Source: a virus
Lineage: Duplodnaviria; Caudoviricetes
Reading direction: 5' to 3' (one strand)
Length of the DNA: 58,317 bases
Virus record (IMG/VR): IMGVR_UViG_3300050139_000117
Location: 1-58,317 of that record
The notes below the pieces were generated by a model. That model was not told where the DNA came from. It was given only the letters and a program-made list of their open reading frames with translations, and did no database searches. Numbering within the stretch: the stretch's first letter is position 1; every line of letters begins with the position of its first letter. This document shows positions 7,356-57,466 of this stretch, piece after piece. A program made the position numbers and the translations under genes.

Positions 7356-7387
7356 AATGGGTTGATATTAATACTCACGTTATTTTG

Positions 7388-12334: not shown

Positions 12335-12443
12335 CGGTCTTGGATGGATTCGAACCATCAACCACCTCCGTGCGTGGAGGCATTCATACCTACTCAAGTG
12401 TTTTACACTTGGCAACCTTTCGGCTGTTCTGAACTACAAGACC
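12335..12443 (-). tRNA. tRNA-Asp-like gene with two hairpins in the D-loop and a 6-nt anticodon loop
   Basis: GGTCTTG/CAAGACC acceptor, G73, CCTCC-ACGCAC-GGAGG, GATGG-TTCGAAT-CCATC. Confidence 0.55.
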
Positions 12444-29125: not shown

Positions 29126-29342
29126 TCACTTTCATCGCATCATTGAAATCAATATCAATTTCATTAGCTATGTCTGCATTCATTTCTCTTAATACCAGTT
29201 TTAATTGAATTAGTTCCGCATCACTGAATGTGCTGGTGTGTTTAGAATTGAGTTTATTACAGAAGGTTCCGAGTGGCATTTTTATTTGTTTCGCCAGTAT
29301 CCCCTTATTTATTTTCCATTTATTTATAAGCTTTTCCATCAA
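29100..29342 (-). CDS. Small HTH-like regulator (cargo)
   Basis: KGILAKQIKMPLGTFCNKLN. Confidence 0.5.
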   Translation of the reverse strand: MMEKLINKWKINKGILAKQIKMPLGTFCNKLNSKHTSTFSDAELIQLKLVLREMNADIANEIDIDFNDAMKVIVKNEKGR

Positions 29343-29393
29343 AGTAAATTTTGTACAAAGGTACGATTTTTACTTGATATGTGCAAGTTGAAG

Positions 29394-30341: not shown

Positions 30342-30446
30342 TAATTGAAATCAATTACAAAATTAAGTATATGTGGTGTAAAGTGTTGATAATCAAGGAT
30401 AAAAAGATTTAATTTGTATGAATAGATATATAACTACCTTAATTTA

Positions 30447-31112
30447 TTAAATAGCAAAATCTATATAGGTTTACATTCTACTGATGATATAAACGATAAT
30501 TACTTAGGTTCTGGTGTCTTTTTAAAAAAAGCAATAAAAAAATATGGTCGAGAAAACTTTAAAAAAGAAATTTTATTCATTTTTGATAATAAATCAGATA
30601 TGATAAAAAAAGAAAAAGAATTAGTTAACGAAGCATTTATATTAAGAAAAAACACTTACAATATGGCTAAAGGTGGTTATGGTTTATCAACACTATCAGA
30701 CAAAAAAAGGAAAAAAGCAATAATTAAAATGAAAAAGACTAAAAAAACTCAAAATTTAAGTTTAATTGCTAAAAAACGAATTAAAACTATGTTAACTGAT
30801 GACCCAGAGTGTTTTAGTAAAATAGCGGCTAAATCTTCAACTAAGCAAAAAGATAACTACTCAAAAGGTTATATAAACCCAAAACAAAGATTAGACGATG
30901 TTATTATTTATAATCAATATAATGAAGTGATGTATAGATGTAAACGTATCGAACTAACTACTTTATGTTCTAAGCATGATTTACCTATCCGTGTTATTAT
31001 CAAATCAATACAAACCAAAGGATTACCATTATATACAACACAAGCTCCTAGAAAAGAAACTTATGTTAAATATACAGGTTGGTATGCCATTTATGAGAAT
31101 GATTTACATTAA
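30447..31112 (+). pseudogene. 3' part of the interrupted GIY-YIG homing endonuclease
   Basis: KIYIGLHSTDDINDNYLGSG...KKYGRENFKKEIL in frame with ORF 30600..31112. Confidence 0.85.
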
Positions 31113-32170
31113 ACTTTTTCTTGGTCAAAGAAGTAACGTCTAGCAATTTCAGATACATACTTAGACACATCTTTTGGTTCTAAACCAGCTTCAATTAATA
31201 TATCTGAATCTTCCTTTAACACATCATCCATAACCATCTTAAGATAAAACCCTAATTTAGCTCTATCAAGTTCACCGCCATTACCTAAATCACATGATTT
31301 TTCAATCATTTGAGCAAGTCTCCAAGTTGGTGTTACTTTATCAGCAATTTCACGTGCTTTATTAATTTTTACATCATCAACTTTACTAAGTGTCTTAACT
31401 TTAGATTTACCAGCGTGAAGTTCACCCTTCACCTTGAACCTGTGAACAACATTCTTGAACTCACAAGACCATACGATACCTTCACCAATTCCAGAGAATC
31501 CAAAAGCTTTACCAACTGGACATTCTTCTTCAACAGCAATGGTTAATTCGCTTAGTTTGTTTTGAACCATTTCTGGCTCATTGAAGTTGATATCAATTTC
31601 CCATGTTTGGTAATCATTGATATTGAAAATCCTTTGTTCTGGACTTCTTAAGTATGTGTGGTCAACCCAGTATGATGGATTGGCTTTAACAGCGGCCTCA
31701 TCGTTCTTATCAACAATTGGACTAATCTTAACGCCAAAGATAAAGAATGATTTAGGAAGATTATTAAGTGCAACAGTTTTTTGAATGCTACCGCCAGCCC
31801 ACTCACCAAAGATTGAAATAGTATTCATTGCAGTATCTACATGTGTGTTATCAACTACTTTGTCAACTAAACTATGAAATGATTCCTTATTGCTTTCAAC
31901 AAAGAAAGCAAAGCCCATGTTATCTGCTTCTGGTGTGATTATATTCTCTTTTGATTGAGCCCATAGACCACCAACTGTGTTATAACAAACAGCAGCATTG
32001 GTACCATGTAGTTTTACAGTACCTTTAAATGTAAGTGTCGGTTTAATCTTGGTATGGTCGTAAATTGCTTCACCATTTTCATCAAGACCAACAAAATTAA
32101 ATTGTCTATTAACACTAGCAACTACATTTCTGAATTGCTCAATGCTAGGCATACTAATGTGTTTTTTCAT
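31109..32170 (-). CDS. RNA ligase, Rnl2-like
   Basis: TVKLHGTNA (KxHGxN), FGEWAG, GEGIVW, FKVK. Confidence 0.85.
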   Translation of the reverse strand: MKKHISMPSIEQFRNVVASVNRQFNFVGLDENGEAIYDHTKIKPTLTFKGTVKLHGTNAAVCYNTVGGLWAQSKENIITPEADNMGFAFFVESNKESFHSLVDKVVDNTHVDTAMNTISIFGEWAGGSIQKTVALNNLPKSFFIFGVKISPIVDKNDEAAVKANPSYWVDHTYLRSPEQRIFNINDYQTWEIDINFNEPEMVQNKLSELTIAVEEECPVGKAFGFSGIGEGIVWSCEFKNVVHRFKVKGELHAGKSKVKTLSKVDDVKINKAREIADKVTPTWRLAQMIEKSCDLGNGGELDRAKLGFYLKMVMDDVLKEDSDILIEAGLEPKDVSKYVSEIARRYFFDQEKV

Positions 32171-32171
32171 T

Positions 32172-32450
32172 TTATTTGTCTTTAAATTTTTCTACTTCGA
32201 TAACTATAACTTTAGTATCTTCTAATTGTTTTTTTAATTTAGATAATAAGGTTTGATATACATAAATATCAGCTATTTCTTTATTTATATCATTAGATTT
32301 TTTCTTATCCTCATCAGTAATTGGTGGTTCAACTTCATACACCATTTGTATTGCTCTTAAGGTATGAAAACCACTATTTTCATAGTATGTTTGTGTTGAC
32401 TGAATTGCTTCAATCTCTTTATCTAAAACAATTTTAAAATCGTCTAACAT
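32172..32450 (-). CDS. Hypothetical protein
   Basis: Coupled ORF. Confidence 0.5.
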   Translation of the reverse strand: MLDDFKIVLDKEIEAIQSTQTYYENSGFHTLRAIQMVYEVEPPITDEDKKKSNDINKEIADIYVYQTLLSKLKKQLEDTKVIVIEVEKFKDK

Positions 32451-32737
32451 TATTTTCCTTCTTTTTTATACCCTTGTACACGATAATTTAAAGCCGCATT
32501 AAAATCTTTAGCTGCTTGTATTTCTTTAACAATAACTGTTGATTTATCCGCAACATTTTCCAATGCGTTTAATCTATCAGAACCATCAATCCTAGCATCT
32601 GCTTCAGTCTTGTGGTCTGGGCTAACATCCCATTTAACAGCTAACCCTTTTTCTCGTAGGGTATCAACAATTTCTTGTGCTATGCGTGTTTTTCCACTAC
32701 CAAAGGCACCAATTATTTGTATTTGTATTCCGTTCAT
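32450..32737 (-). CDS. Small P-loop-containing protein
   Basis: GAFGSGKT Walker A. Confidence 0.55.
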   Translation of the reverse strand: MNGIQIQIIGAFGSGKTRIAQEIVDTLREKGLAVKWDVSPDHKTEADARIDGSDRLNALENVADKSTVIVKEIQAAKDFNAALNYRVQGYKKEGK

Positions 32738-32739
32738 AA

Positions 32740-33210
32740 TTAAAAATTAAATGTTATACTTGGGGTTACATAATTTACCCCATCCCAATTGCTGTATGTA
32801 ATACCATAACCCATTTTACCTACACTGTATGATAATCCAGCACCATATTCTATTAATCGATGTGTAGAGTTAAAATATCCACCCCAACCAAAAATAACAT
32901 TTGCACTTAATGGACCGCTGATTGGAATATAACCAGCACCTTTAAATTCAAAATAATAATTTGCTAAAATATCTGTCTTTTCAGCAAAACCAACCAAGTT
33001 ACCACGACCAAAAATACCACCAAAGGAAATATTTTTATACATAGCACCAGCTTCTAGAGCGACATATGATGCGGCATTAAAATTGTTCCCATTTGATGTT
33101 GATAATCCAGCTGAAACATAGCCAGTAATTTTGGATTTCGTTGAATCCGTTTGTGCTGTAACAAATGTTGTAATCAAACACGCAAATGCTAATAGAAATA
33201 CTTTTTTCAT
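32740..33210 (-). CDS. Putative small outer-membrane beta-barrel
   Basis: Signal peptide, alternating aromatic/Gly strands, terminal Phe. Confidence 0.6.
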   Translation of the reverse strand: MKKVFLLAFACLITTFVTAQTDSTKSKITGYVSAGLSTSNGNNFNAASYVALEAGAMYKNISFGGIFGRGNLVGFAEKTDILANYYFEFKGAGYIPISGPLSANVIFGWGGYFNSTHRLIEYGAGLSYSVGKMGYGITYSNWDGVNYVTPSITFNF

Positions 33211-33217
33211 TTTATTT

Positions 33218-33637
33218 TTAGTAAATTAATTCGGGAACTATTTCCCTTGTGGTGTTGTCTTTCAATAAGACTCTGTATTTTACATAGTAGTTGTACTTCC
33301 CACCACCAATCAGTACATCTTCTATTACTACCCTTGCTGAATCATTCTTAAGATAAGCCAAATCACCAACCTTATATTTTAGCTGGCCAGTTACTTCATC
33401 TCTACGAACCATTGCTTGGGTAAGTGTCTTGTATTTAGATAATTCAGCGTTTGCACGAAACAATGAATCTCTAATTAATGAACAAGTTGAACTTATCGAT
33501 TGTTCACGAGCTAATTTTTCGTTTTTCTCAGCAAGTTCTTTTTTATCACCTCGAATGCACCAGATGAGTGAACCAAACCCGACTCCATATACGAAAAGAA
33601 GTCCTAAGACTAAACCAATAATCTGTTTTTTACTCAT
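33218..33637 (-). CDS. Membrane-anchored hypothetical protein
   Basis: N-terminal TM helix, coiled coil, small beta domain. Confidence 0.55.
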   Translation of the reverse strand: MSKKQIIGLVLGLLFVYGVGFGSLIWCIRGDKKELAEKNEKLAREQSISSTCSLIRDSLFRANAELSKYKTLTQAMVRRDEVTGQLKYKVGDLAYLKNDSARVVIEDVLIGGGKYNYYVKYRVLLKDNTTREIVPELIY

Positions 33638-33647
33638 TGTTTAAGTT

Positions 33648-35039
33648 TTAACTTTTAACTGTTAATGTCTTAGCCATTTCTTCAATTTCTTTGCAAGATT
33701 CTAAGGTATCACAAGTATTCTTGTCGGGTCTCAATTCAGTTACAGATGGATGTTGTGTTGACCAACCTTTATCTGTTTGTGAAAGTCCACAACATCTGAT
33801 TTCAACAATTGTACCCAAAAGTTCCGCTTGTCTTTTTGTTATATCGGCCATCATTTCTTCAGTCATCCCAGCTGGTGCTGTTTTTAACAAACCACATTCT
33901 GATTCCAACTCTAAAACTGAAATAACATTCTCGTTCTTGGTGCCTTTTGTACCATACTTAAATCCAACGATTCTCAAATCCATAGACATTTCAAGTTTCA
34001 TTTTGATTTGGTATGTTGGCTTACCATCTTTCCATCCAGCTTCAGATGATTTGATTATTGTTCCTTCTAAACCTCTTTTTTGAGTATCCAAGAAGTGTTC
34101 AATCGCTTCAGCATATGTTTTAATGTATCGTGTTTCAACAACACTAACATTTTCAAGATTATGACTAGATAAAGCAAGTTCAAGATTTTTAAACCTAACA
34201 CTATAAGGTGTGTCTGAATTTGCTTCAAAATATTCTTCAACTGTAATTTTATCCCAAACAGTAAATCGCATAGCGTTTAATGCATCGGCATAACTACCAT
34301 GCTTTTCTTCAAAAGCATCTATTTTCTTCTGAGTTTCCTCTGGGCCTCTTTCATTGGCTTTCTCTGTGATATCCATGATTGAGTTTACCATACCATTGGC
34401 TATCGTTCTTTTGAAACCATCAATGGTTAATTCACCATTCAATACACAGTCATCTAATGTTGATAACTCTTTCAAAAATTTTGCACCATCTAAAGATGAT
34501 ACTTCACCTTGTCTTGATATTAATTCTACTTCACCACTTCTTATAATAGCATTTCTGTAAGTTCCGTCAGCTTTAACTTGTGACATAACAACTTTACCTT
34601 TACCAAATAATTTAAGTGCTCCTTTCTCAGAGAATGATTTAGCACCTTGATATGGTGTTTCTTCAATGAGATTAGGTATAACCTTGTTTATCCCAGAGTC
34701 CATACCAATTTTCAAATCTTTATCAATAATGCGCTCAATAACGTAAGCATCATCTTCATTCAATGAAGTTAAGATTGATTTTAAATAACTAGTTGCTTCA
34801 CTGCCAGTTACTTTTCGACTAGATAATCCATCTAACCCAAGCATCGCCATATCCAACGAATGACCACCATTTGGTGTGTATTCTGGTATCTGCTTGATAT
34901 AAAATTTAATTCTTGGAGAATGTGCTAAATAAATTACTCGTTTAAGTAACTCATTATCTTTATGTTTACTTAATTCTTTACCTTTATCGTTTTTTCCACT
35001 GATAGCGGCAATTTTATCCAATATTAATTTAATACTCAT
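33648..35039 (-). CDS. ATP-dependent DNA ligase
   Basis: QVKADG, LNGEL, VWD, EGTIIK, KMK, C-terminal OB fold with HP...RPDK. Confidence 0.92.
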   Translation of the reverse strand: MSIKLILDKIAAISGKNDKGKELSKHKDNELLKRVIYLAHSPRIKFYIKQIPEYTPNGGHSLDMAMLGLDGLSSRKVTGSEATSYLKSILTSLNEDDAYVIERIIDKDLKIGMDSGINKVIPNLIEETPYQGAKSFSEKGALKLFGKGKVVMSQVKADGTYRNAIIRSGEVELISRQGEVSSLDGAKFLKELSTLDDCVLNGELTIDGFKRTIANGMVNSIMDITEKANERGPEETQKKIDAFEEKHGSYADALNAMRFTVWDKITVEEYFEANSDTPYSVRFKNLELALSSHNLENVSVVETRYIKTYAEAIEHFLDTQKRGLEGTIIKSSEAGWKDGKPTYQIKMKLEMSMDLRIVGFKYGTKGTKNENVISVLELESECGLLKTAPAGMTEEMMADITKRQAELLGTIVEIRCCGLSQTDKGWSTQHPSVTELRPDKNTCDTLESCKEIEEMAKTLTVKS

Positions 35040-40712: not shown

Positions 40713-41837
40713 TTAAAGGATTTTATATAACGCCTTGTCATCGTAGTTAAACATAAAATCTTCAACTGATTTAACCTTACCGTCAGCAAGACCAAAGTAT
40801 AACCCAGTAAAGTTTTTAACGTTGTGTTTTCCACATACTTCAAATACCGCTTGAGCAAACTTCTTCTTTTCTTCTGGCATAATGTTCTTTGGCTTTCTTA
40901 TTGCTAATTCATCCCACACCACGTTCAATTTAACAATTAACTTATCGTAGTTTTCCTTAAGCTTGTACAATTCTTCTTTACGTTCTGGGAACGTAGCACC
41001 AAATTCTTCAATCTCGTTGGATTTAACAATAGTTAATATGTTATGTTCAGCTGACTTACCCTTAAGGTGATGGACTGCAACATAAGCTGGGTTCTTTATT
41101 TTAACACGGTTAAATTTAGCATCTACTACAACATAACCTTCGTCATGCCATATCATGTTCTCAAATGTACGTAAGATTGCTCCAACGTCTTTAGCATTCA
41201 AGTCATATGACTTAACAACTGGCACACCAAGAGTAGCACCTATTTGTACCAGTTCTTCACGAGACACTTCTTCAAGTGTATCTAAGTTTCTAGCTGTCAA
41301 TAATGATGCTGATGATTCACCATGTGGTTTTACAACGATGTTATATGGTGTTGTTAACTCAAATACAAAACAATATCTTTTAGACATTTGGTCTGTATTC
41401 AAATTGTACTTTTCTTTAACAGTATTCCAAAATAAGTCATTAAATGTAGTACCCAATTTGTTGTTTACTTCACCTTCACCCTCAGCTGTACCAGTAGTAC
41501 CAGCAAACCAAGTGTTCTTATAATGGTCCCAATACACTTGCATACAAGAGCCATCTAACTTCTCAAGTATGTGTGCTGTGTTCCAGTCAATTTTATGAGC
41601 ATTTCCTTCTTCAGAGTTGAAGAACTTCCTAAATGCCAATGACATAACCTTAAAATCCTTACGGTCAAGTATTATACCACGGCAGTCTTGCATTTCTTGC
41701 AAAGCCATAAGAGTTGGAGAGACCAATTGGTCATACTTCAAAAGGATTTTATTCTCATAGACTCTAGTTTTTAACTTAAAGTCATTGATTGCCTTTTCGA
41801 TACCGTGTTCTAAGATGTATTTTTGTATTGCTAACAT
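40713..41837 (-). CDS. RNA ligase, T4 Rnl1-like
   Basis: CRGIIL, FRKFFN, EKLDGS, FEL..PYN.VV, EGYVV, RVKIK. Confidence 0.88.
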   Translation of the reverse strand: MLAIQKYILEHGIEKAINDFKLKTRVYENKILLKYDQLVSPTLMALQEMQDCRGIILDRKDFKVMSLAFRKFFNSEEGNAHKIDWNTAHILEKLDGSCMQVYWDHYKNTWFAGTTGTAEGEGEVNNKLGTTFNDLFWNTVKEKYNLNTDQMSKRYCFVFELTTPYNIVVKPHGESSASLLTARNLDTLEEVSREELVQIGATLGVPVVKSYDLNAKDVGAILRTFENMIWHDEGYVVVDAKFNRVKIKNPAYVAVHHLKGKSAEHNILTIVKSNEIEEFGATFPERKEELYKLKENYDKLIVKLNVVWDELAIRKPKNIMPEEKKKFAQAVFEVCGKHNVKNFTGLYFGLADGKVKSVEDFMFNYDDKALYKIL

Positions 41838-42693: not shown

Positions 42694-43314
42694 TTATATC
42701 ACCACTGTACACATCACGCAAATCGGGATTTTAACATTATTTTTTCTGTCGCTGGGTCTTGTTTGTTTACCCCTATCGGCTTCTGCCAATCTCTTTATTT
42801 CATGTATTTCTCGATGACAATTTGAACAAACAAGTATACATTTATCTAATTCTTCTGTTATTTTTTTAGTAAATTTATAACCTTTAACATCAGATATACT
42901 AAAATCTTTTTGTGTTGGGTCTAAATGATGAAACTCTAATGCTCCAATGTATTTATTATACCCACAACCTTCAACTTGACATTTACCGCCTTTATATTCA
43001 ACACATAATCCTTTAAATAATCTTTGTCTTTCAGTTGTTTGTTCACTAGTACATATTTTACAATAAACCGAACCACCTTCTTTTCCTCGTCTTTGATAAA
43101 ACTCACTTATAGGTTTATCATTTTTACATCTAATACAACACCTACTATCACCATATTCAACAACGCCTTTATCTTTAAAAGATAAATTATTTGTTTTCAG
43201 TTTATACTTATCTAACCAATACCTAACTGTTGTTTTTCCTTTACCAACTTGTTTGCTAATATCACCTAGTGATAAACCAGATTTAACATATTCAACTAAT
43301 ATTTCTTTTTCCAT
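42694..43314 (-). CDS. HNH endonuclease with HTH and Zn-finger
   Basis: ALEFHHLDP..KDF...KCILVCSNCHREIH. Confidence 0.85.
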   Translation of the reverse strand: MEKEILVEYVKSGLSLGDISKQVGKGKTTVRYWLDKYKLKTNNLSFKDKGVVEYGDSRCCIRCKNDKPISEFYQRRGKEGGSVYCKICTSEQTTERQRLFKGLCVEYKGGKCQVEGCGYNKYIGALEFHHLDPTQKDFSISDVKGYKFTKKITEELDKCILVCSNCHREIHEIKRLAEADRGKQTRPSDRKNNVKIPICVMCTVVI

Positions 43315-44504: not shown

Positions 44505-45101
44505 TTATTTTTTTTTTGAGATTAAGAACAATTCTTCTTTAGCCCCAATAACATCATGAAATACAACCCTGTTATTTTCACTTATATAATACAAATCGTC
44601 TAAAGCTTCACCCTTTAAAACTAATTGTTTTCGTTTATTTTGTTTCCAATATGCTTCAGATGTAAAATGAATAAAATTATTATTATCTATTGCATAAAGA
44701 TATTTATTTTTTGGTAATTCAGCTAACAAATAGTAAACTCCCATACTCTCTAATGATTCTGAAACCAATTGATTGTATTTACCGAAGCTACCACTAATCA
44801 AAACATCAAATGGAACCCATTTAACAACATGTGGTTCATTATGATTTATCTCACCTTCGTAATCAGCCATATAAGTATAACCCATATTTCCCGATTTGTG
44901 AATAGCAAACACCAACTTTAAATTACTGATTCTTAAACCAGTTTCTTCAAGTGTTTCACGAATAGCTGTTGTGATTGGATTTTCATTATCCTCTGGGTCC
45001 ATCTTCCCACCAGGCAAACCAAAATCATTATGGTCAGTTTTCCTAGATACACCTAATACGTACCCTTCTTTATTTATTAGAACTACTTGTGCCGTTATCA
45101 T
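44505..45101 (-). CDS. NUDIX hydrolase
   Basis: GLPGGKMD...TAIRETLEETG Nudix box. Confidence 0.9.
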   Translation of the reverse strand: MITAQVVLINKEGYVLGVSRKTDHNDFGLPGGKMDPEDNENPITTAIRETLEETGLRISNLKLVFAIHKSGNMGYTYMADYEGEINHNEPHVVKWVPFDVLISGSFGKYNQLVSESLESMGVYYLLAELPKNKYLYAIDNNNFIHFTSEAYWKQNKRKQLVLKGEALDDLYYISENNRVVFHDVIGAKEELFLISKKK

Positions 45102-47018: not shown

Positions 47019-47981
47019 TTAAGATTTAACTGTGGCTGATTGTTCATCTTTCTTTTTATATCTACTTACTTCCGTAACAATACCTTTCACAATAAAGTGT
47101 TTAACGTCTTGCCACTTCGTTATTTCATTGCTCATCTTTGGCATACCACCATCTGGATTAACAGCTAGTGTAATATGTGGGATAGCATTTTTTGATTTGT
47201 ATCCTTCTACTTTAAAAGCCATAGCCATATCAGATAGACCAACATGTGTTACCGTAAGAGTAACCTCTTTACCAATATCTGACTTATCCTTAAGTGGACC
47301 AAGACAAATAGTCATATGGTCACAAAACTCTTTACCTTCTCGACCCATAATCCAATTCTTTGGTGGGTCCATATTGTAATTAATTGGGGTAAGCAACTTG
47401 TTCAAAGATGCTCGGTCCAACATAACAGCTGAGTATAAGATTGGAGAGATTTTAAACATGTCTTTAGCTTCAAGTATTTTTTTAAGTGTTAATTCACCAA
47501 CTGACTTATGAGATTGTATCATTGCTTCAATCTTATCCAATGGTACACCGTGTGTGTTTCTAGCAGACAATGCTTCCGCATCCAATCCACCAGTGCCAAC
47601 ATCAACAATTTGGATGTTAGCATCATCATATCCCATATTCAAAGCTTCAACAACAAACTTTTTAGGTTCGTTTGCCTTGATATTTGTGTTGTCGATAATG
47701 ATTGGTGATATACCAGCCTTCATTGACTTCTTTGCGTTTTTAAAGTTTGTGTCATGAGCCTTATGCAATGCAGAGTAATCCTTAGATTCAATCATTGCAG
47801 TAAAAAATGCTCGGTAGTCACCTATTGATTCAATAACAGCATCAGTAGAGTGGATGATACCATCACCAACAAGAGACTTGGCTTTTGTTGACTTGCCAGA
47901 GCCTGGTATTCCACGCATTATGATTAATTCTTGGTTTGGTTTTGTAACCACTTTACCTAATATGTTCAACTTTTCATTCAT
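47019..47981 (-). CDS. Polynucleotide kinase (P-loop) fused to 2H cyclic phosphodiesterase
   Basis: MRGIPGSGKST, IIDNTN, RNTHGVP; HMTI and HITL motifs. Confidence 0.85.
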   Translation of the reverse strand: MNEKLNILGKVVTKPNQELIIMRGIPGSGKSTKAKSLVGDGIIHSTDAVIESIGDYRAFFTAMIESKDYSALHKAHDTNFKNAKKSMKAGISPIIIDNTNIKANEPKKFVVEALNMGYDDANIQIVDVGTGGLDAEALSARNTHGVPLDKIEAMIQSHKSVGELTLKKILEAKDMFKISPILYSAVMLDRASLNKLLTPINYNMDPPKNWIMGREGKEFCDHMTICLGPLKDKSDIGKEVTLTVTHVGLSDMAMAFKVEGYKSKNAIPHITLAVNPDGGMPKMSNEITKWQDVKHFIVKGIVTEVSRYKKKDEQSATVKS

Positions 47982-48017: not shown

Positions 48018-48572
48018 TTATTGTTGAACTTTTATGATTGTTGGATTGTAAATTATATAGTGAGTTACATCATTATATTCTTTAGGGATACAAAGACCAT
48101 CAATTCCCATTTTAACCATGTTTCTAACATAATCAACTGGTTCATTTTTGTAAAAATCATACCAAATTTGTTGAGCAACGTCTTTTTCAGTGTCATTATA
48201 ATCTAATGCACTGTCTACGAACACATTAACACCTTTTTTAGGATTTTCATCGTAATTTTGGGCATGCATTTCCCATTCTGGGGCCATCATGGTCATTTTG
48301 GTAACCAGAGGACGTAATTTTTTTGGATTGGTTGGTGTTTTGTCTAAAAGAAGTCTTGGAGTGATGGTTGCAGTATATACAAACTCACCATAACCATTTG
48401 CTTCTTCTTTTGATGATGTAAAGTAAATTCCAGGCCCCTCTTGGTCCACAGCCTCTTTCCCACCAACGAAATCATCAGTAAATTTAGCGATTTGTGTTGG
48501 TGAACCGTGATAAACTGTAATTGAACCACCTTTAAGTGCTTCATTAAGTCTTTGTTTTATAAGCTGTTTCAT
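48018..48572 (-). CDS. ART-fold-like protein, possibly virion-packaged
   Basis: VYHGS...GPGIYFTSS..EA..Y...GIDG; MKQLIKQRLNE start. Confidence 0.55.
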   Translation of the reverse strand: MKQLIKQRLNEALKGGSITVYHGSPTQIAKFTDDFVGGKEAVDQEGPGIYFTSSKEEANGYGEFVYTATITPRLLLDKTPTNPKKLRPLVTKMTMMAPEWEMHAQNYDENPKKGVNVFVDSALDYNDTEKDVAQQIWYDFYKNEPVDYVRNMVKMGIDGLCIPKEYNDVTHYIIYNPTIIKVQQ

Positions 48573-48699: not shown

Positions 48700-48703
48700 A
48701 TTG

Positions 48704-48774
48704 TAGTCCCAATAGGATTCGAACCTATATTAATTGCTTAGAAGGCAATTGTCCTTCCCTTGAACGATGGAACC
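48704..48774 (-). tRNA. tRNA-Arg(TCT), canonical
   Basis: ATTGC CT-TCT-AA GCAAT. Confidence 0.9.
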
Positions 48775-48780
48775 ATTTAG

Positions 48781-48860
48781 AACCGACAATGGGATTCGAA
48801 CCCACATTTGCACATCCAGTTACGATTATCTGCTTAGAAGGCAAACTCGTGTATATCGGC
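48781..48860 (-). tRNA. Rewired tRNA-Arg(TCT): no D-arm at normal position, D-loop-like AACTGGAT 3' of anticodon arm
   Basis: GCCGATA TAC ACGA G TTTGC CTTCTAA GCAGA TAA TCGT AACTGGAT GTG CAAAT then T arm. Confidence 0.7.
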
Positions 48861-48898
48861 ATTTGTACGGTTACGTCTGAAACGTTCCCGACTTTCAG

Positions 48899-48971
48899 TA
48901 GTCCCACCCAGATTCGAACTGAGCCCTTAGATTTAGGAAATCCAAATTCTATCCTAATAAACTATAGAACC
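48899..48971 (-). tRNA. tRNA-Arg(CCT)
   Basis: TGGAT TT-CCT-AA ATCTA. Confidence 0.82.
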
Positions 48972-48976
48972 ATTTG

Positions 48977-49050
48977 TACACTCAGTAAGATTCGAACTTA
49001 CAGCCTTTCGCTTCGTAGGCGAATGCTCTATCCAGTTGAGCTATGAGTGC
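48977..49050 (-). tRNA. tRNA-Arg(ACG)
   Basis: TTCGC CT-ACG-AA GCGAA; D-loop AACTGGATA. Confidence 0.92.
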
Positions 49051-49056
49051 ATGTTG

Positions 49057-49135
49057 AACACCTAGAGGGATTCGAACCCCCGATTTCAGTTCCGCTACCC
49101 TTATTGATTTCGAAGACCAATGGGACTATAGGTGC
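49057..49135 (-). tRNA. Rewired tRNA-Arg(TCG)
   Basis: GCACCTA TAGT CCC A TTGGT CTTCGAA ATCAA TAA GGG TAGCGGA ACTG AAATC then T arm. Confidence 0.7.
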
Positions 49136-49144
49136 ATTTGTTTG

Positions 49145-49221
49145 TCCCGACAGTCAGAATCGAACTGACATGTGACCAATTACACTTTCAACGCCTTATG
49201 AGAGCGAGGTGATATGTCGGG
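49145..49221 (-). tRNA. Rewired tRNA(CAT), Met or lysidine-Ile
   Basis: CCCGACA TAT CAC C TCGCT CTCATAA GGCGT TGAAA GTG TAATTGGT CACAT then T arm. Confidence 0.65.
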
Positions 49222-49225
49222 ATTG

Positions 49226-49313
49226 CGGATGGTACAGGATTCGAACCTGTGATGGAACTTACGTTCACCAGATTAACAGTCTGGACTTTTCGACCAACTA
49301 AAGCAAACCATCC
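49226..49313 (-). tRNA. tRNA-Asn(GTT) with long variable arm
   Basis: CCAGA CT-GTT-AA TCTGG; V-arm GAAC-GTAA-GTTC. Confidence 0.8.
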
Positions 49314-49397
49314 GTATTTTTTTTTAATTCTTCATGTATTTCAATATGACAATTTGCACATACTGATGTCTAACAAACAACCGTTTTACCATTATTA

Positions 49398-49580
49398 CTA
49401 CTTATCCTTATATTCTTTAAATTCGTTTTCTTTTAATTCTGTTAGTTCTTCAATACTATGTGAATACGTTATGTATGTTGGACCATTATTTATTGTTCGT
49501 TTATATTCATAAGTATAAACAGGTCCATTTGAAGATTCAATTATAGTTTTATTTATCCCTAATCTATGTACTACTATCAT
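49398..49580 (-). CDS. Small hypothetical protein in the tRNA array
   Basis: 60-aa ORF with a short internal repeat (NGP.Y). Confidence 0.4.
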   Translation of the reverse strand: MIVVHRLGINKTIIESSNGPVYTYEYKRTINNGPTYITYSHSIEELTELKENEFKEYKDK

Positions 49581-49596
49581 ATTTTTATTTTTATTG

Positions 49597-49669
49597 CGGA
49601 TAGTGTAGGAATCGAACCTACCACCCTCGGCTTAACAAACCGCAGCTACACCTTGTCAGCTTACTATCC
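49597..49669 (-). tRNA. tRNA-Asn(GTT)
   Basis: TT-GTT-AA loop, GGATAGT/ACTATCC, G73. Confidence 0.82.
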
Positions 49670-49676
49670 AATTTTG

Positions 49677-49756
49677 TAGGGACGATGGGACTTGAACCCA
49701 CATTTTCAACGACCATTACGGTTATACAAGGTATAAGCTTGCATCGGTACGTCCCC
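49677..49756 (-). tRNA. Rewired tRNA-Ile(TAT)
   Basis: GGGGACG TAC CGA TGCAAG CTTATAC CTTGTA TAA CCG TAATGGTC GTTG AAAAT then T arm. Confidence 0.65.
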
Positions 49757-49846: not shown

Positions 49847-50500
49847 CTATATTTTTATTCTTCCTTGAATCCATCCTTTATTTATCCATGAATCAAGGTC
49901 TTCTTTCTTAATCTTTTTATTTACTCCTTCTTTAGTTATCCAACAAGTACCGAATTGTGAATTTTTATCTCCATCATGTTTACCTTTATGTGATTCACTC
50001 ATTAATTGTTTTGAATCACTAGTATGTTTCTTATCTGTCCAACTTTTATTACCTTTAGAGTTACTACTCATTTTATTAGAGTATTCAGTTGACCAGTTAT
50101 CATCATTATTAAATAACCATTTTTTCCTATTTTTAATCTTCACTTTATTTTCAACAAACATTGTTACTGCTTTTTCTAAAAATTTTCTACGATGTTCTTC
50201 ACCACTAAATCCTCCTTCTCCTCCAAGTTGTAAATTCATACAAAGCTCTTCATTAATCAATTCTTTAGTAACTAATTCTTTTTCTCTATTCTTCAACGCT
50301 TCTCTTGTTGGTAACCATTCAAGTATTTCTTTAATATGATTCGCTTTACCATGATAATTGATACTAAACCAAAGCCTTTTACCACTTCCAAAATAACCAT
50401 CATTCAAATTATCAGTTGAATGCATTCCGATGTAATATCTATTTGTTACTTTACAAGTAATCTTATAGATGTAATTAAATTTCTTTTCTTGTCTTGCCAT
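49847..50500 (-). CDS. GIY-YIG homing endonuclease (paralog of 4661..5314)
   Basis: YIYKIT...YYIGMHST...YFGSG...NSQFGTCWITK. Confidence 0.85.
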   Translation of the reverse strand: MARQEKKFNYIYKITCKVTNRYYIGMHSTDNLNDGYFGSGKRLWFSINYHGKANHIKEILEWLPTREALKNREKELVTKELINEELCMNLQLGGEGGFSGEEHRRKFLEKAVTMFVENKVKIKNRKKWLFNNDDNWSTEYSNKMSSNSKGNKSWTDKKHTSDSKQLMSESHKGKHDGDKNSQFGTCWITKEGVNKKIKKEDLDSWINKGWIQGRIKI

Positions 50501-50537
50501 ATATTATAAATATGTAGCAAGTACAGAAAGTTCAAGG

Positions 50538-50620
50538 TTGTGACGGTGAGAATCGAACTCACTTTGTAGTTGCCTACCCACGGTATCAGCGTGGTACCTA
50601 AACCATCCAGCCCCGTCACA
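50538..50620 (-). tRNA. tRNA-Ile(GAT) with long variable arm
   Basis: CCACG CT-GAT-AC CGTGG; V-arm GTAG-GCAA-CTAC. Confidence 0.78.
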
Positions 50621-51097: not shown

Positions 51098-51103
51098 ATT
51101 TTG

Positions 51104-51191
51104 GGTGTCAGACGAGACTCGAACTCGCAAGGAACTTTCGTTCTTCTGGCTCACAACCAGACTCGATAACCATTTACGGACTACAGACACC
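51104..51191 (-). tRNA. tRNA-His(GTG) with long variable arm
   Basis: G-1/C73; TCTGG TT-GTG-AG CCAGA; V-arm GAAC-GAAA-GTTC. Confidence 0.75.
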
Positions 51192-51460: not shown

Positions 51461-51557
51461 CGGAGAGAGAGGGATTCGAACCCACACACCCTATTTCTAG
51501 GAGCCCTCGATTTTCAAGACCGCTGCCGCTACCCAGATTCTTTCGGCTTATCTCTCC
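51461..51557 (-). tRNA. tRNA-Ser(TGA) with enlarged D-loop
   Basis: GGAGAGA/TCTCTCC, CT-TGA-AA, long V-arm, G73. Confidence 0.8.
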
Positions 51558-51561
51558 AAAT

Positions 51562-51651
51562 ATCGCAGTACAGGATTCGAACCTGTGGTCCCCAGAACGG
51601 GGACATCCTCTTTCATTGGAGGATTGCTTTAAGCCACTCAGCCAACTGCTT
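51562..51651 (-). tRNA. Ser-like tRNA with enlarged anticodon loop and frayed acceptor (pseudo or atypical)
   Basis: ATCCTC-CAATGAAA-GAGGAT; V-arm GTCCCC/GGGGAC; intact T arm. Confidence 0.55.
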
Positions 51652-51654
51652 CTG

Positions 51655-51754
51655 CACGTACAGTAGGATTCGAACCCACATAGAGACTTAATTCCAAAGA
51701 ATACTTGCTCTCGGTTTTGGAGACCGTTGCCTATAACCATTCGGCCATGTACGT
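51655..51754 (-). tRNA. tRNA-Trp(CCA) with very long variable arm
   Basis: ACGTACA/TGTACGT, CT-CCA-AA, about 30-nt V region, G73. Confidence 0.75.
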
Positions 51755-53811: not shown

Positions 53812-54135
53812 TTATCCGTAATATAAATTATCGTATTCTGCTGATTCACCACAACACTTGCCACATATAAAACCTAATATTTCCCAAGGGTATTTTGGTG
53901 ATTGTGATTTACCTAAAAAATCTGGTTGTGGGCGTTCAATTAGCTTACCTCTTTGTGTATGTGTATGTAATATATCATCTGGAGTGATTTTACAATCACA
54001 TATTGAACATTGATAGACTATATTATCTTGTTTTCTTTTCCAAGATTGTAGTTCAAAATCAGTATGAGCTATCCCAGTATGAATTACTGGGACTTGCCCA
54101 TGCTTAATATAATTTAATTTTCTATCGTCACTCAT
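53812..54135 (-). CDS. Zn-finger-like hypothetical protein
   Basis: CSIC...CGKC. Confidence 0.5.
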   Translation of the reverse strand: MSDDRKLNYIKHGQVPVIHTGIAHTDFELQSWKRKQDNIVYQCSICDCKITPDDILHTHTQRGKLIERPQPDFLGKSQSPKYPWEILGFICGKCCGESAEYDNLYYG

Positions 54136-55025
54136 TACAACAATCTCTTAAAGTTGTCAGTTTCCATTTTTTGAATCGCTTTACCCAATTCTGGGCCAGG
54201 CTTCAAATTAAATTTTTCCATTGCTTCTGGACCACTAACACTAAGTCTGAATTTAATAAATGCATCTAATAACTTATTATCAATACCTTCGATTTTACCG
54301 AATTTCTTAATCTGTTCAACACTAACACCAGCATGTTCTTGTGCTCGTTTAAGTGCAACTGCTGTATCAACAGATAACTTCAATAATGCATCTAAAAACT
54401 TGATTGATTTTATTTCTTCATCAGTGTATTTAAGAATATTAAGTTTTTTACCAAGACTATCTAAGTTGTTACCTTTAAGCATTGCTGCAATAACTATGAT
54501 TGGGTCTTCATCATTGATAAAATTCTTATCAACAGATAAGCCAGCGAATATGGCATTAAATAAATGGTATTTGTCAATCATCTGTAAAAACTTTTTTACA
54601 GATTTGGCTGACTTGATACCTTTCATGAATTCATCACGAATACGTTCACCAGAAATACCTTGAAGACTTGCATTTTTTTGTAGTGCAGCATCAGTGGCTG
54701 GGTCTAAATCACTTCCAAATCTTCCAGCAAAACGAATTGCTCTAAGAATACGTAAACGGTCTTCACCAAATCTATCTTCTGGAGCACCAACAGTTCTTAC
54801 AACACCATTCTTAAGGTCTTGCACACCACCAACTAGGTCAACAATTTCAAATGTATCAATATCATAAAATAATGCATTGATTGTTAAGTCACGTCTTTTA
54901 ACATCACCTTCAATATTTGTAAAACTTACAGCATCTGGTCTACGACCACTCCCTTTTAAAGTGTTTTTAAAATCAGCAAATTCATCTGAAAATGAAATAT
55001 TCGCCATTTCTTCCCATTTTTCCAT
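54135..55025 (-). CDS. CCA-adding enzyme/poly(A) polymerase, C-terminal part
   Basis: GRRPDAV, RRDLTINALFYD, RFGEDRLRILRAIRF, ISGERI, GPELG. Confidence 0.9.
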   Translation of the reverse strand: MEKWEEMANISFSDEFADFKNTLKGSGRRPDAVSFTNIEGDVKRRDLTINALFYDIDTFEIVDLVGGVQDLKNGVVRTVGAPEDRFGEDRLRILRAIRFAGRFGSDLDPATDAALQKNASLQGISGERIRDEFMKGIKSAKSVKKFLQMIDKYHLFNAIFAGLSVDKNFINDEDPIIVIAAMLKGNNLDSLGKKLNILKYTDEEIKSIKFLDALLKLSVDTAVALKRAQEHAGVSVEQIKKFGKIEGIDNKLLDAFIKFRLSVSGPEAMEKFNLKPGPELGKAIQKMETDNFKRLL

Positions 55026-55301
55026 TTAATATATTTTTTTAATTGAAAATAGAATTTTAATTATTTCTGTTAACTCATCTTCAGTTCTATCTTCAAGACT
55101 ATTATTATGCACATGTTTAAAACTACTACAACACCAATTCATTGGAATAATTCTATAACCTTCCAAATCGTAATCATATTGCATTGATATTCTCCATTTT
55201 TCTAATTGGATATTAAATGTTTCATTATCTCTTTCACCAAATTTTTGTAACCATGCCTTAATTGACATTACTTGTTCTTCTTTATTCATTTTAATTTCCA
55301 T
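55026..55301 (-). CDS. Hypothetical protein between the two halves of the CCA enzyme
   Basis: 91-aa ORF coupled to the endonuclease. Confidence 0.5.
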   Translation of the reverse strand: MEIKMNKEEQVMSIKAWLQKFGERDNETFNIQLEKWRISMQYDYDLEGYRIIPMNWCCSSFKHVHNNSLEDRTEDELTEIIKILFSIKKIY

Positions 55302-55981
55302 TTATAACCACCACATTTATTTCTATCACCATTTATTACACTACAAATATTACCTTGACTTAATTTTAATTCTTTAGCTGCTGCATGAGCACTAACCCAT
55401 TCTCTAATCACTTCTCCATCATTTGTCAATTGTAATACTGGTGTTGCATTCCACGATAATGTTCCTTGTTTAGTTTCAGATATTTGTTTCTTTGTTTCTT
55501 CTGAATGACTATTACCAGTATTTCTACCAACTTGACCAATTAATGAATCACTAATTTTTTTTCTTGTAGCTAAACTAGCCTTCTTTCTTTTAATACCACT
55601 TGGACCTTCACCACCATCTGTTTGATTGGTTAATGGACCTGTTTTTGTTTTATATCTCCCAATTACTTTTATAATTTCTTTTTCAAATATAAAAGATGTT
55701 GGTTCATCTAGATTTTCTTTAACCTTAACGATTATTGGATATAAACCTTCATTAAGTATTTTTTTAATTTTGTTATTCTTATATGTGTTTTTCTTTAATG
55801 ATGATGGTCTAAAATGTGTATTTATTCTATCACCAGAGCCTGTTTCATATTTTTGACCTTTACCAACATAAAACGGTTCATAATCAAACTTGTAATCACC
55901 ATATGTATATTCACCTTTTTTATTTGGGTCTAAAAATAAATAAACGTAGTATCTTTCGTGTTCCATGATAATAAATATCAC
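55286..55981 (-). CDS. GIY-YIG-like homing endonuclease with NUMOD3/NUMOD1 motifs
   Basis: YYVYLFLDP...PFYVGKG...GPLTNQTDGGEG...CGGYKW; related to 35944..36699. Confidence 0.82.
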   Translation of the reverse strand: MIFIIMEHERYYVYLFLDPNKKGEYTYGDYKFDYEPFYVGKGQKYETGSGDRINTHFRPSSLKKNTYKNNKIKKILNEGLYPIIVKVKENLDEPTSFIFEKEIIKVIGRYKTKTGPLTNQTDGGEGPSGIKRKKASLATRKKISDSLIGQVGRNTGNSHSEETKKQISETKQGTLSWNATPVLQLTNDGEVIREWVSAHAAAKELKLSQGNICSVINGDRNKCGGYKWKLK

Positions 55982-56452: not shown

Positions 56453-57466
56453 TTAAATTAAATATCCTAACTTTTCTATTTCTTTCTTTGAAGACAGAAG
56501 TCTCTCATCATAGTTTCCTTTGATTATAACGTACTTCTTATTCAAACGGTCCAACTCAGCCTTAATCATATTAAAGTGTTTCTGACGGTCATTTGGGAAG
56601 TCTCTGGTACCATCATCAACCCATGGAACATCTATATCCATGAGTAGGTATAAATCGAACCATTGATGTTCTATTATATCATCAATTCTAGTATCCTTAT
56701 AGTCTTTTATGTATAATTGCCCAAATAATTTTGTTGTAATTGCTTCAGTATCAACAATTAACCATGGTCTACACACTACTAGGTGTTTCTCTAATAGTAA
56801 TTCATTATGCGTTTCTGCTATATGAAAAAAGTCATCTACTTGTAAATCAGTACCTTTCTTAACCTTTTCTACATATTCCCTACCATATTCTGATATATAA
56901 GAAGTACCCATATCATGTGCCAGCTGCTCTACTAGTGTAGATTTACCTGTAGATTCGGGGCCTACTACTGCTATACGTTTGGTATAGTATGGTTTTACGT
57001 CATCTGGTATGAAATACCAGAACAAATCTGGGTTATTTCGTATCTTGGTACCAGATACTTGGTACGTTTCTCTATTAATATCTACCAAAACGTGTTGTAC
57101 ACCTAAATATTTGGCAAATTCATCACCATATTCTTCAGAAGTGAAGATAGCATCTACTCTAGTCACTCTATTAAACACTGTCGGTACCCAAAAATCATTA
57201 TAAAACTCATCAACTGAGGTACATTCTTCTGGATTTTGAGGATTTTCATCAGTAACATGAATGATTTCAACATTTGTTTGCTTGTCATAAATCATTCTTA
57301 ACCAATTTGCTCTTAATAAACCATTGATTGGTTCCCTTTTAAGTGAACAAATCATAACAAATACCTTTTCACATTGCTCAATAGCAGTATTTATCAAAAA
57401 TAAATGTCCATTATGTGGTGGCATGAACTTTCCGAGTACTAAACCACGCTCAAATTTCTTTTCCAT
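56453..57466 (-). CDS. nadR: NadR-like NMN adenylyltransferase / ribosylnicotinamide kinase
   Basis: GKFMPPHNGH, SGTKIR, GPESTGKSTL, EYGREY, PWVDDGTR. Confidence 0.9.
   Translation of the reverse strand: MEKKFERGLVLGKFMPPHNGHLFLINTAIEQCEKVFVMICSLKREPINGLLRANWLRMIYDKQTNVEIIHVTDENPQNPEECTSVDEFYNDFWVPTVFNRVTRVDAIFTSEEYGDEFAKYLGVQHVLVDINRETYQVSGTKIRNNPDLFWYFIPDDVKPYYTKRIAVVGPESTGKSTLVEQLAHDMGTSYISEYGREYVEKVKKGTDLQVDDFFHIAETHNELLLEKHLVVCRPWLIVDTEAITTKLFGQLYIKDYKDTRIDDIIEHQWFDLYLLMDIDVPWVDDGTRDFPNDRQKHFNMIKAELDRLNKKYVIIKGNYDERLLSSKKEIEKLGYLI

Follow-up and report, generated by a model that had tools for sequence, protein, structure and literature searches.

Phage tRNA genes that lack a D hairpin carry a D-loop-like segment 3' of the anticodon arm and probably encode elongator tRNAs with a strand-swapped core

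Here we describe four transfer RNA (tRNA) genes, in the viral record IMGVR_UViG_3300050139_000117, that have no D hairpin and carry a D-loop-like segment 3' of the anticodon arm. The window, by which we mean the whole stretch of DNA that was analyzed, comprises the 58,317 bases of this record, with an estimated completeness of 16% and a G+C content of 29–38%; its minus strand holds all of its tRNA genes and nearly all of its long open reading frames (ORFs). The four genes belong to a family whose members share one secondary structure, together with sequence signatures of the tRNA tertiary core and of amino acid identity. Judging from their sequences, we consider it likely that they encode working phage elongator tRNAs with a strand-swapped core, namely tRNA-Arg(UCU), tRNA-Arg(UCG), tRNA-Ile(UAU), and a tRNA with anticodon CAU that is probably Ile2-like. 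As such, they would be expressed, would fold into an L shape, and would be charged and used in decoding.

Results

Layout of the four genes

All four genes lie on the minus strand at the positions where an earlier note, made without database searches, had placed them (Table 1), and the layout that it described was borne out: the acceptor, anticodon, and T arms are normal, and only 7–8 nt occupy the site of the D arm. In each gene, a 7-bp acceptor stem is followed by T8-A9, a linker of 5–6 nt, and a 5-bp anticodon stem with a 7-nt loop. No D stem-loop is present between positions 9 and 26, as only those 5–6 nt separate A9 from the anticodon stem. On the 3' side of the anticodon arm, each gene continues with an A-rich bulge of 3–5 nt and a strand that is the complement of the linker. 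A segment containing GG and a short connector then lead to a regular T arm; the insert preceding the T arm measures 21–24 nt. The linker pairings and GG segments that the note had listed were all found (Table 1), the pairing in the TAT gene being only CG with CG, and AACTGGAT is, as it had said, the D-loop of the canonical tRNA-Arg(ACG) at 48976–49050.

ARAGORN called 20 tRNAs in the window, and none of these four genes, which we refer to as rewired, was among them. The Rfam tRNA model (RF00005), with its threshold of 29 bits, was passed by one of the four in a search of the whole window and by two in a local search, and the Rfam alignment of the two passing genes has the D arm deleted and 20–21 nt inserted in the variable region.

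Gathering the family

Searched with BLAST against deposited phages, the TCT and TAT genes matched two uncultured phages of 634–642 kb, in which the layout is kept and the partner strands have changed together, e.g., CCC...GGG for ACGA...TCGT in the window. A seed covariance model revealed further copies in three genomes of this 634–642 kb class, including Ile(GAT) and Trp(CCA) genes. The first model (R1) was built from three Arg genes, missed the CAT gene, and matched the TAT gene only in part; it was superseded by the family model R2. Given that a D-loop-like GTARYGG motif 11–17 nt upstream of a T arm is impossible in a cloverleaf, this spacing could be used as a scan signature, and two scans of IMG/VR with it returned at least 120 and at least 119 stretches. 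A structural parser applied to both yielded 92 parses and at least 63 unique genes, one parse (L153) being dropped by eye. With a third scan added, 148 parses and 111 unique sequences were obtained, two of which were dropped as non-members, leaving at least 109 genes in 110 loci. This enlarged set includes three uncultured phages of 634–642 kb and two cultured phages. Members were selected on T8, U33, R37, the GG element, and the T-loop motif (demanded by the scan patterns and the parser alike), which are hence no findings; A9 was left free by the parser, and position 48 lay inside an unconstrained gap of the first two scans.

Nearly all members of the family are Arg or Ile genes. In the 63-gene set, anticodons are TAT (20 genes), GAT (13), TCG (12), TCT (10), ACG (4), CAT (2), CCA (1), and CCT (1), and gene length is 74–82 nt. 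The CAT members are most closely related to Ile genes, which is why we read them as Ile2-like. R2 separated the family from other sequences: among the 136 matches listed, 80 members scored at least 43.2 bits and everything else scored at most 38.3 bits. CCA is encoded in 15 of the 109 genes. ARAGORN calls overlap 13 of 146 rewired instances, and in these calls the ends or the anticodon are often wrong, with the 5' end shifted by 9–18 nt or the gene called Asp or Thr.

A helix between the linker and the 3' strand

The 63 genes were aligned with MAFFT without structural guidance (84 columns). From this alignment, RNAalifold, likewise unguided, predicted a helix of 3 bp joining columns 12–14 with columns 38–40, in addition to the stems of the acceptor, anticodon, and T arms. 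Because the linker runs 5' to 3' into the anticodon stem, as positions 22–25 do, and its partner runs into A14, as positions 10–13 do, the mapping onto tRNA numbering is fixed. Pair 23-12 is formed in 63 of 63 genes, and so is pair 24-11, which occurs as G-C in 32 genes, A-T in 18, and C-G in 13. Pair 25-10 is formed in 47 genes and pair 22-13 in 12. Among the remaining stems, the acceptor stem (columns 1–7 with 77–83) has changed on both sides at all seven pairs, and co-variation was seen at five of five pairs in the anticodon stem and at four of five in the T stem. The T loop reads TTCGAAT in 36 of the 63 genes, and A37 is present in 62.

Several controls bear on this helix. Taken together with the pair formed by position 15 and the base before the T stem, 93.3% of its cells are paired, compared with 65.1% (standard deviation 1.8) after shuffling, and 0 of 500 shuffles reached the observed value. 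Sliding the 3' partners by 1–3 columns left 4–44% of cells paired, and when partner strands were swapped between genes, the inner pairs fell from the observed 2.75 to 1.86, with a maximum of 2.08 over 2000 trials. Relatedness was controlled with 244 gene pairs that are at least 70% identical outside the tested columns: pair 24-11 differs in 127 of them, and all 127 differences are compensated. In an unbiased mutual-information scan, the top 17 column pairs were all pairs of the model, with 24-11 third overall. Pairs 23-12 and 24-11 are also formed in all 28 genes of a subset found independently of the scan pattern. In 13 full-length genes matched only by R2, the helix is kept, with T-A as a new type at 24-11.

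Two local pairings were tried and rejected. A hairpin GTG...CAC within the variable region of the CAT gene is not kept by its relatives, in which GTG changes with the linker and not with the downstream CAC (CCG with linker CGG in L160, GGT with linker ACC in L089, the downstream TCACAT being constant). Likewise, a CGA/TCG pairing 3' of the GG in the TAT gene is not possible in the L002 homologue, which has no CGA.

Signatures of the tertiary core and of amino acid identity

The strand that pairs with the linker reads N-N-N-T, and the segment after it continues with A, R, one to three bases, G-G, and N20, giving T13-A14-R15-Y-G18-G19-N20. T13-A14 is invariant in the 63-gene alignment, and A9 is present in all 63 genes. 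Position R15 and the base before the T stem (Y48) combine as A-T in 31 genes, G-C in 31, and A-C in one, and both states occur within each of the TCT, GAT, TCG, and TAT groups. Among the 244 close gene pairs, this combination differs in 50, and all 50 are compensated. The same rule, read by eye, is obeyed by 12 of the 13 genes matched only by R2. In its covariation, the pair thus behaves as the Levitt 15-48 pair would. The signatures U8-A14, R15-Y48, and G18 G19 of the tertiary core are all present, but 3' of the anticodon arm.

Position 20 follows the anticodon: every one of the 27 Arg genes has A there, and T is found in 12 of 13 GAT, 14 of 20 TAT, and both CAT genes. N73 is A in all 35 Ile and CAT genes. 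In Table 1 of a review of tRNA identity, A20 appears as the core determinant of bacterial Arg, and A73 and U20 appear among the determinants of bacterial Ile (PMC9976931).

The earlier note had proposed a covariance model, a search of phage metagenomes, and a test of covariation, and these returned homologues and covariation alike. Its view that the fold is selected and not decaying was backed by RNAalifold, the shuffle and slide controls, mutual information, and the compensated changes among close relatives. Its D-loop-like element gained support from the T13-A14-R15...G18G19-N20 signature, the 15-48 covariation, and the amino acid-specific position 20.

Distribution and conservation

One Ile-type signature was found on 69 IMG/VR contigs of about 4 to 476 kb and on one contig among 185,579 prokaryote species. 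That contig is a 19-kb piece of a metagenome-assembled genome (MAG) with 12 tRNA genes in about 4.4 kb and a member scoring 84.3 bits, and we take it for a phage fragment. Two cultured phages have a tRNA-Arg(UCU) member: Limnohabitans phage DC31 (76 kb; 73.1 bits; PQ492658.1 44884–44959), a phage of Limnohabitans sp. DCL3, where the stretch is unannotated, and Maribacter phage Panino (77 kb; 66.8 bits), a phage of Maribacter halichondriae, where the gene lies in a tRNA array. With the Rfam tRNA model, the DC31 gene scores 44.1 bits, above the threshold of 29, and the Panino gene 25.1 bits, below it. In the Panino record (L317, PP540027.1), a "hypothetical protein" coding sequence (CDS) at 27999–28106 overlaps the rewired tRNA-Arg gene (28066–28145) in its 5' portion, and a very large "tRNA methyltransferase" CDS (28228–33717) adjoins the tRNA array. 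BLAST of L195:4010-4183 against cultured and deposited phages gave no match, and the queries L201 and L227 had LR756502 as their sole match.

Copies of the window genes occur on contigs from other samples, with no differences in the CAT gene, 0–2 in the TAT gene, and two within a stretch containing the TCG gene; the flanks of these contigs differ from the window. A marine metatranscriptome contig of 244 nt spans 48983–49144, including the TCG gene, with six differences and one gap. Two wastewater runs labeled "RNA?" were flagged as probably DNA.

Genomic context and codon demand

Rewired genes sit in dense tRNA arrays, with a median of 6 ARAGORN tRNAs within 2 kb, and 27 of 146 instances share their short locus with a canonical tRNA of the same anticodon. 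In the window, such a copy immediately adjoins the rewired Arg(UCU) gene (Table 1). The anticodons TCG, TAT, and CAT occur in none of the window's ARAGORN calls. In 33 window ORFs, AGA accounts for 56% of all Arg codons, and ATA for 32% of those for Ile. An RNA ligase, a polynucleotide kinase-like protein, and a CCA-adding nucleotidyltransferase are encoded on the same strand (Table 1).

HNH, homing-endonuclease, and GIY-YIG genes (42694–43314, 49847–50500, and 55286–55981, all on the minus strand) lie among the tRNA arrays of the window, which fits the mosaic, exchangeable arrays seen in the contigs from other samples. The genes around the arrays also include, on the minus strand, PARP-like, ART-PolyVal ADP-ribosyltransferase, NUDIX hydrolase, and NadR-like NAD-salvage proteins (22129–23394, 48018–48572, 44505–45101, and 56453–57466, respectively), and this looks like a cluster of functions related to NAD and ADP-ribose.

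Table 1. Rewired tRNA genes of the window, their parts, and associated genes.
Feature	Position	Strand	Basis or remarks
Rewired tRNA-Arg(UCU), 80 nt	48781..48860	-	R2 70.4 bits (training-set gene); Rfam tRNA 33.7 bits, D arm deleted
Arg(UCU) T8-A9	48852-48853	-	Precedes linker strand
Arg(UCU) linker ACGA, equivalent of D-stem 22-25	48847..48850	-	Pairs with 48822-48825; covariation across family
Arg(UCU) anticodon arm	48829..48845	-	Anticodon TCT at 48836-48838
Arg(UCU) strand TCGT, equivalent of positions 10-13	48822..48825	-	After anticodon arm and TAA bulge
Arg(UCU) D-loop-like AACTGGA (A14, R15, G18 G19, A20) and connector TGTGCAAA	within 48806..48821	-	
Arg(UCU) Y48 equivalent, T	48806	-	
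Rewired tRNA-Arg(UCG), 79 nt	49057..49135	-	R2 68.7 bits; no Rfam tRNA match, only tRNA-Sec 19.3 bits
Arg(UCG) parts	CCC 49122-49124 pairs with GGG 49098-49100; AGCGGA 49091-49096; Y48 equivalent C 49082	-	
Rewired tRNA with anticodon CAU, 77 nt, probably Ile2-like	49145..49221	-	R2 59.7 bits; T20 and A73, as in Ile members
CAU gene parts	CAC 49209-49211 pairs with GTG 49183-49185; AATTGGT 49175-49181; Y48 equivalent T 49170	-	
Rewired tRNA-Ile(UAU), 80 nt	49677..49756	-	R2 82.3 bits; Rfam tRNA 32.9 bits
Ile(UAU) parts	CG 49745-49746 pairs with CG 49719-49720; AATGGT 49712-49717; Y48 equivalent T 49702	-	
Canonical tRNA-Arg(UCU), immediately adjoining rewired Arg(UCU)	48703..48774	-	ARAGORN, Rfam
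T4 Rnl1-family RNA ligase	40713..41837	-	Pfam RNA_lig_T4_1 E 9.6e-14; phrog_562 E 6e-41
P-loop kinase, polynucleotide kinase-like	47019..47981	-	Pfam AAA_33; phrog_505 "polynucleotide kinase" E 1.3e-10
tRNA nucleotidyltransferase, CCA-adding type	54135..55025	-	Pfam PolyA_pol and PolyA_pol_RNAbd; phrog_2244 E 1.9e-39

Other unusual tRNA genes

Long variable arms in bacteria are normally limited to Leu, Ser, and Tyr tRNAs. On the minus strand of the window, tRNAs for Asn(GTT), Ile(GAT), His(GTG), and Trp(CCA), 85–100 nt long (49225–49313, 50536–50620, 51103–51190, and 51655–51754, respectively), have a hairpin of the long-variable-arm kind, e.g., GAAC-GTAA-GTTC, and each adjoins a canonical copy of 72–75 nt with the same anticodon. 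Similar pairs of a deviant and a canonical tRNA, for Asn, Glu, Thr, and Tyr, occur in the huge-phage loci L001–L003, and the long-arm Asn tRNA of the window matches the "tRNA-OTHER" of Cellulophaga phage phi4:1. A type II-like tRNA at 51561–51652 (minus strand) was given a 4-base anticodon (atga) and an 8-nt anticodon loop by ARAGORN and could be a frameshift-type or otherwise aberrant decoder. At about 51461–51557 (minus strand), a tRNA-like gene was read by eye, in which the acceptor strands are GGAGAGA/TCTCTCC, the T loop is TTCGAAT, and the anticodon loop is of the TGA type; it adjoins a canonical tRNA-Ser(TGA), received no ARAGORN call, and is not on the Rfam gathering list. Elsewhere on the minus strand, a 92-nt tRNA at 7387–7478 has anticodon TTA and would read the UAA stop codon, and a 109-nt Rfam tRNA match at 12335–12443 (40.4 bits), adjoining a tRNA-Val, has large insertions and an unclear anticodon loop. 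A tRNA-Ala-like gene in L002 (2923–2997, minus strand; anticodon TGC, acceptor G3-T70, irregular D region, read by eye) had no ARAGORN call and no Rfam match at E 0.1.

Within the rewired family, 24 of 63 genes form the first acceptor pair (columns 1/83) as a G-T wobble, the two Arg genes of the window among them; such a wobble is unusual at position 1-72. Two rewired Ile(GAT) genes from different phages (L001 3169–3247 and L230 9823–9901, both minus strand) form a sub-class with AAAGG as the D-loop element and CTCAGAA in place of the TTCRANT T loop, and the T stems of the two copies differ yet stay paired. Five rewired members have insertions (L160 11715–11803, L243 8578–8667, L162 1173–1262, L114 7728–7811, and L060 7119–7203), either a bulge of 9–12 nt that follows the anticodon arm or an additional hairpin separating the D-loop element from Y48; at both of these joints, the scaffold can evidently accommodate extra sequence. 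A 95-nt R2 match in L195 (2656–2750, plus strand; 35.4 bits), in which a linker ACGA faces TCGT before ATTGG, may represent the rewired layout in a Tyr(GTA) gene, with a long insert added, an uncertain reading made by eye.

Discussion

Proposed fold and function

We propose that the rewired tRNAs would build the same L-shaped core along a different strand path. After U8-A9, the chain would enter the strand equivalent to D-stem positions 22–25 and run straight into the anticodon stem. Beyond the anticodon arm and the short A-rich bulge it would form the partner strand 10–13, followed by the D-loop nucleotides in their normal order (A14, R15, Y16/17, G18, G19, N20) and by a short TG-AAA connector ending in Y48 just 5' of the T arm. 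The full order would thus be 8–9, 22–25, 26, anticodon arm, bulge, 10–13, 14–21, connector, 48, and T arm. The equivalent of the D stem would stack on the anticodon stem to give one long arm, and by geometric reasoning, with no computed model, the elbow and core contacts U8-A14, R15-Y48, and G18/G19 with the T loop should still be possible. The tRNAs would be cut from the arrays, and CCA would mostly be added by a CCA-adding enzyme. Host arginyl-tRNA synthetase (ArgRS) or isoleucyl-tRNA synthetase (IleRS) would charge them through A20 or U20/A73 together with the anticodon, and the codons read would be AGA, CGA, and AUA, with AGA and AUA heavily used in window ORFs.

A number of observations weigh against this fold, or limit what can be counted in its favor. 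The helix is short, with 2–4 pairs, and is weakest in the window's Ile(UAU) gene, which has two; pair 25-10 fails in 16 of the 63 genes, and pair 22-13 fails in 51. When single sequences were folded, the helix was not part of the minimum-energy fold of any of the four window genes, the centroid contained it only for Arg(UCU), and Z-scores were modest (−0.9 to −2.1). Given these single-sequence folds, the case is a comparative one instead. The Levitt rule has exceptions, namely one A-C among the 63 genes and one G-G (L123:266), and in the 28 pattern-independent genes the 15-48 combination is A-T in 26, G-C in one, and A-C in one, i.e., G-C is almost absent. The trans geometry of a true Levitt pair is not readable from sequence. 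The mimicry of the D stem is incomplete, as G10, which ordinary tRNAs conserve, is not maintained, and G12-C23 mostly takes the place of the Ile determinant U12-A23. Given that the scan patterns required GTARYGG and a TTCRANTCC T loop, these features are no independent observations, and given that the third scan fixed G15 and C48 jointly, the extra G-C cases in the 109-gene set are not evidence. Finally, the metatranscriptome contig over the TCG gene could be DNA carry-over.

Alternative explanations

That the genes are decaying pseudogenes or assembly artefacts has a vanishingly small chance of being right: standard finders miss them and a few relatives look degenerate (e.g., L103:12773, with GT for GG and an odd T loop), but over 100 different sequences, drawn from numerous samples and assemblies, keep one architecture, changes are compensatory, without a single uncompensated change at 24-11 among close relatives, and identical copies occur in independent runs. 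It is also very unlikely that they are D-arm-less tRNAs of the mitochondrial type, in which an enlarged, floppy variable loop or a local hairpin would replace the core, the GG would not serve as a D-loop, and the pairing of the linker would be fortuitous. Folded singly, the CAT and TAT genes do favor small local hairpins (GUG...CAC and ACC...GGU), and the small number of pairs in the helix would suit this reading; the relatives L160, L089, and L002, however, rule out the local alternatives, RNAalifold and mutual information give the linker helix and no competing pairs, and the R15-Y48 covariation, the invariant T13-A14, and the identity signal at N20 would be unexpected in a floppy loop. Also very unlikely is the idea that the rewired tRNAs are orthogonal partners of co-evolved, phage-encoded synthetases that recognize the odd core. 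Two of the huge-phage genomes (W01 and W03) do carry class Ia synthetase-like genes of the Ile/Val/Leu type. ArgRS (PF00750), however, was found in none of the three complete huge-phage genomes that carry members, W02, which has rewired Ile(GAU) and Ile(UAU) genes, had no PF00133 match, the cultured phages of 76–77 kb carry a member too, and bacterial-type identity elements are retained. Given three genomes with no ArgRS and one with no Ile-type synthetase, charging would have to be done by host enzymes, in keeping with the identity elements that the genes retain.

The rewired RNAs might be tRNA mimics acting outside translation, either as decoys or sponges for a host nuclease, synthetase, or modification enzyme or as regulatory RNAs. 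Their redundancy with canonical isoacceptors would agree with this, and so would an unusual core that might bind without functioning. We nevertheless think it improbable, as features needed for decoding are kept (the 7-nt anticodon loop, A37, covarying acceptor stems, and amino acid-specific N20 and N73), the anticodons TCG, TAT, and CAT are present in the window only in rewired form among called tRNAs, and a decoy would need no match between its anticodon and its identity elements. Alternatively, they could be working tRNAs with this fold and with no defence role, the fold being a historical accident: one ancient, tolerated rearrangement that spread by duplication, anticodon change, and exchange of tRNA arrays and that supplies decoding of AGA, CGA, and AUA. 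This is a real possibility, if one that we would not bet on. It would agree with the single-base steps that link the family's anticodons (TAT, GAT, CAT, TCT, TCG, ACG, CCT, and CCA), with the architecture that the Arg and Ile sub-families, at a mean identity of 55%, have in common, in keeping with a single old origin, with the high demand for AGA and ATA codons, and with DC31, which has only seven Rfam tRNA matches, the rewired Arg(UCU) gene among them, so that this gene looks like an ordinary supplement. Supplementation does not explain the redundancy with same-anticodon canonical copies, one of them adjoining in the window; moreover, the window's long-variable-arm duplicates of Asn, His, Ile, and Trp suggest selection for structural difference itself, and tRNA repair genes lie in the same region.

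Because same-anticodon canonical copies, deviant duplicates, and repair genes are found nearby, we regard escape from tRNA-targeting host factors as the most attractive reading of why these tRNAs are rewired. The earlier note had suggested that they perhaps evade tRNA-targeting defences; support for this is circumstantial and comprises the neighboring genes for tRNA repair and maturation, the same-anticodon canonical copies beside some members, and published phage tRNAs that resist nucleases. Rewiring may have been selected since it makes the tRNA a poor substrate for host factors that cut or deplete tRNA; this is the least certain part of our proposal, and we put it forward tentatively. The fuller statement, that these are topological tRNA isomers that are active in translation, are charged by host ArgRS or IleRS, and were selected to escape enzymes that recognize or cut the canonical junction of the D and anticodon arms, is likewise no firmer than a working idea, with the chances against it.

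Relation to known tRNAs

Canonical elongator tRNAs (RF00005) and the rewired class are alike in arm sizes, in U8, A14, R15, G18 G19, and Y48, in A20 for Arg and U20 and A73 for Ile, and in their occurrence in tRNA arrays. They differ in that canonical tRNAs have a D hairpin between positions 9 and 26, with positions 10–13 and the D-loop 5' of the anticodon arm and G10 conserved. Mitochondrial D-arm-less tRNAs are reduced in size and have lost the conserved elements of the D-loop/T-loop elbow. Mammalian mt-tRNA-Ser(AGY) and nematode mt-tRNA-Ser resemble the phage class in having a short connector for the D stem-loop, and a review describes such forms as short and flexible (PMC7609411). Unlike them, the phage class keeps 74–82 nt, a GG element, a TTCRA-type T loop, and the 15-48 covariation, rebuilds the equivalent of the D stem with a strand from the 3' side, and is encoded by DNA phages, with no organelle involved.

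Another strand path to the L shape is taken by the tRNA-like structures (TLS) of plant RNA viruses and by the tRNA-like domain of tmRNA, which imitate it as parts of larger RNAs, have no working decoding anticodon arm, and often have pseudoknotted acceptor stems. The rewired genes, by contrast, are free-standing, tRNA-sized, and equipped with ordinary acceptor and anticodon arms. In the circularly permuted or split tRNA genes of some algae and archaea, the order of segments is altered and processing restores an ordinary cloverleaf; in permuted genes the 3' half precedes the 5' half, and the acceptor halves, or mature ends, lie in the gene interior. Rewired genes have their acceptor strands at both gene ends, paired with each other, and no simple cut-and-join would restore the canonical order.

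Phage tRNAs that withstand tRNA-targeting defences reportedly include those of phage T5, against PARIS and retrons. In other instances, anticodon-loop variants have been proposed as phage tRNAs resisting such defences (PMC10264068), and a phage tRNA-Thr is described as resisting P2-OLD through a shorter anticodon stem (PMC12445682). The rewired genes are like these in being phage-encoded duplicates with an altered structure thought to be relevant and with tRNA repair genes co-occurring. They differ in scale: resistant phage tRNAs change few nucleotides within a normal cloverleaf, whereas the rewired class changes the connectivity of the whole core.

To our knowledge, the cloverleaf is treated as universal for bacterial translation. 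A statement from 2024 holds that all known bacterial tRNAs adopt it (PMC11551756). Searches of full-text literature, with subscription journals and supplements mostly outside their coverage, found no description of a phage or bacterial tRNA without a D arm or with a relocated D-loop. In a 2020 review of non-canonical tRNAs, the words "phage" and "virus" are absent, and the D-arm-less examples are mitochondrial (PMC7609411). The rewired class is widespread in viruses and apparently undescribed.

Implications

Given that ARAGORN calls overlap so few of the rewired instances, counts of phage tRNAs are probably too low. A natural, widespread class that keeps the tertiary contacts while changing the strand path would mean that the L-shaped tRNA core can be built in more than one way, and it would offer a test case for the tRNA features that are read by synthetases, EF-Tu, RNase P, the CCA-adding enzyme, and the ribosome. 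The scaffold may also serve orthogonal translation. Two cultured phage–host pairs carry a member, which makes these ideas directly testable. If our reading is true, the rewired genes would represent the first non-cloverleaf tRNA class used outside organelles, and if rewiring protects them from tRNA-targeting immunity, this would be a new counter-defence mechanism. Together with the other deviant duplicate tRNAs in the arrays, the class would then add a new layer to the conflict between phages and hosts over tRNAs.

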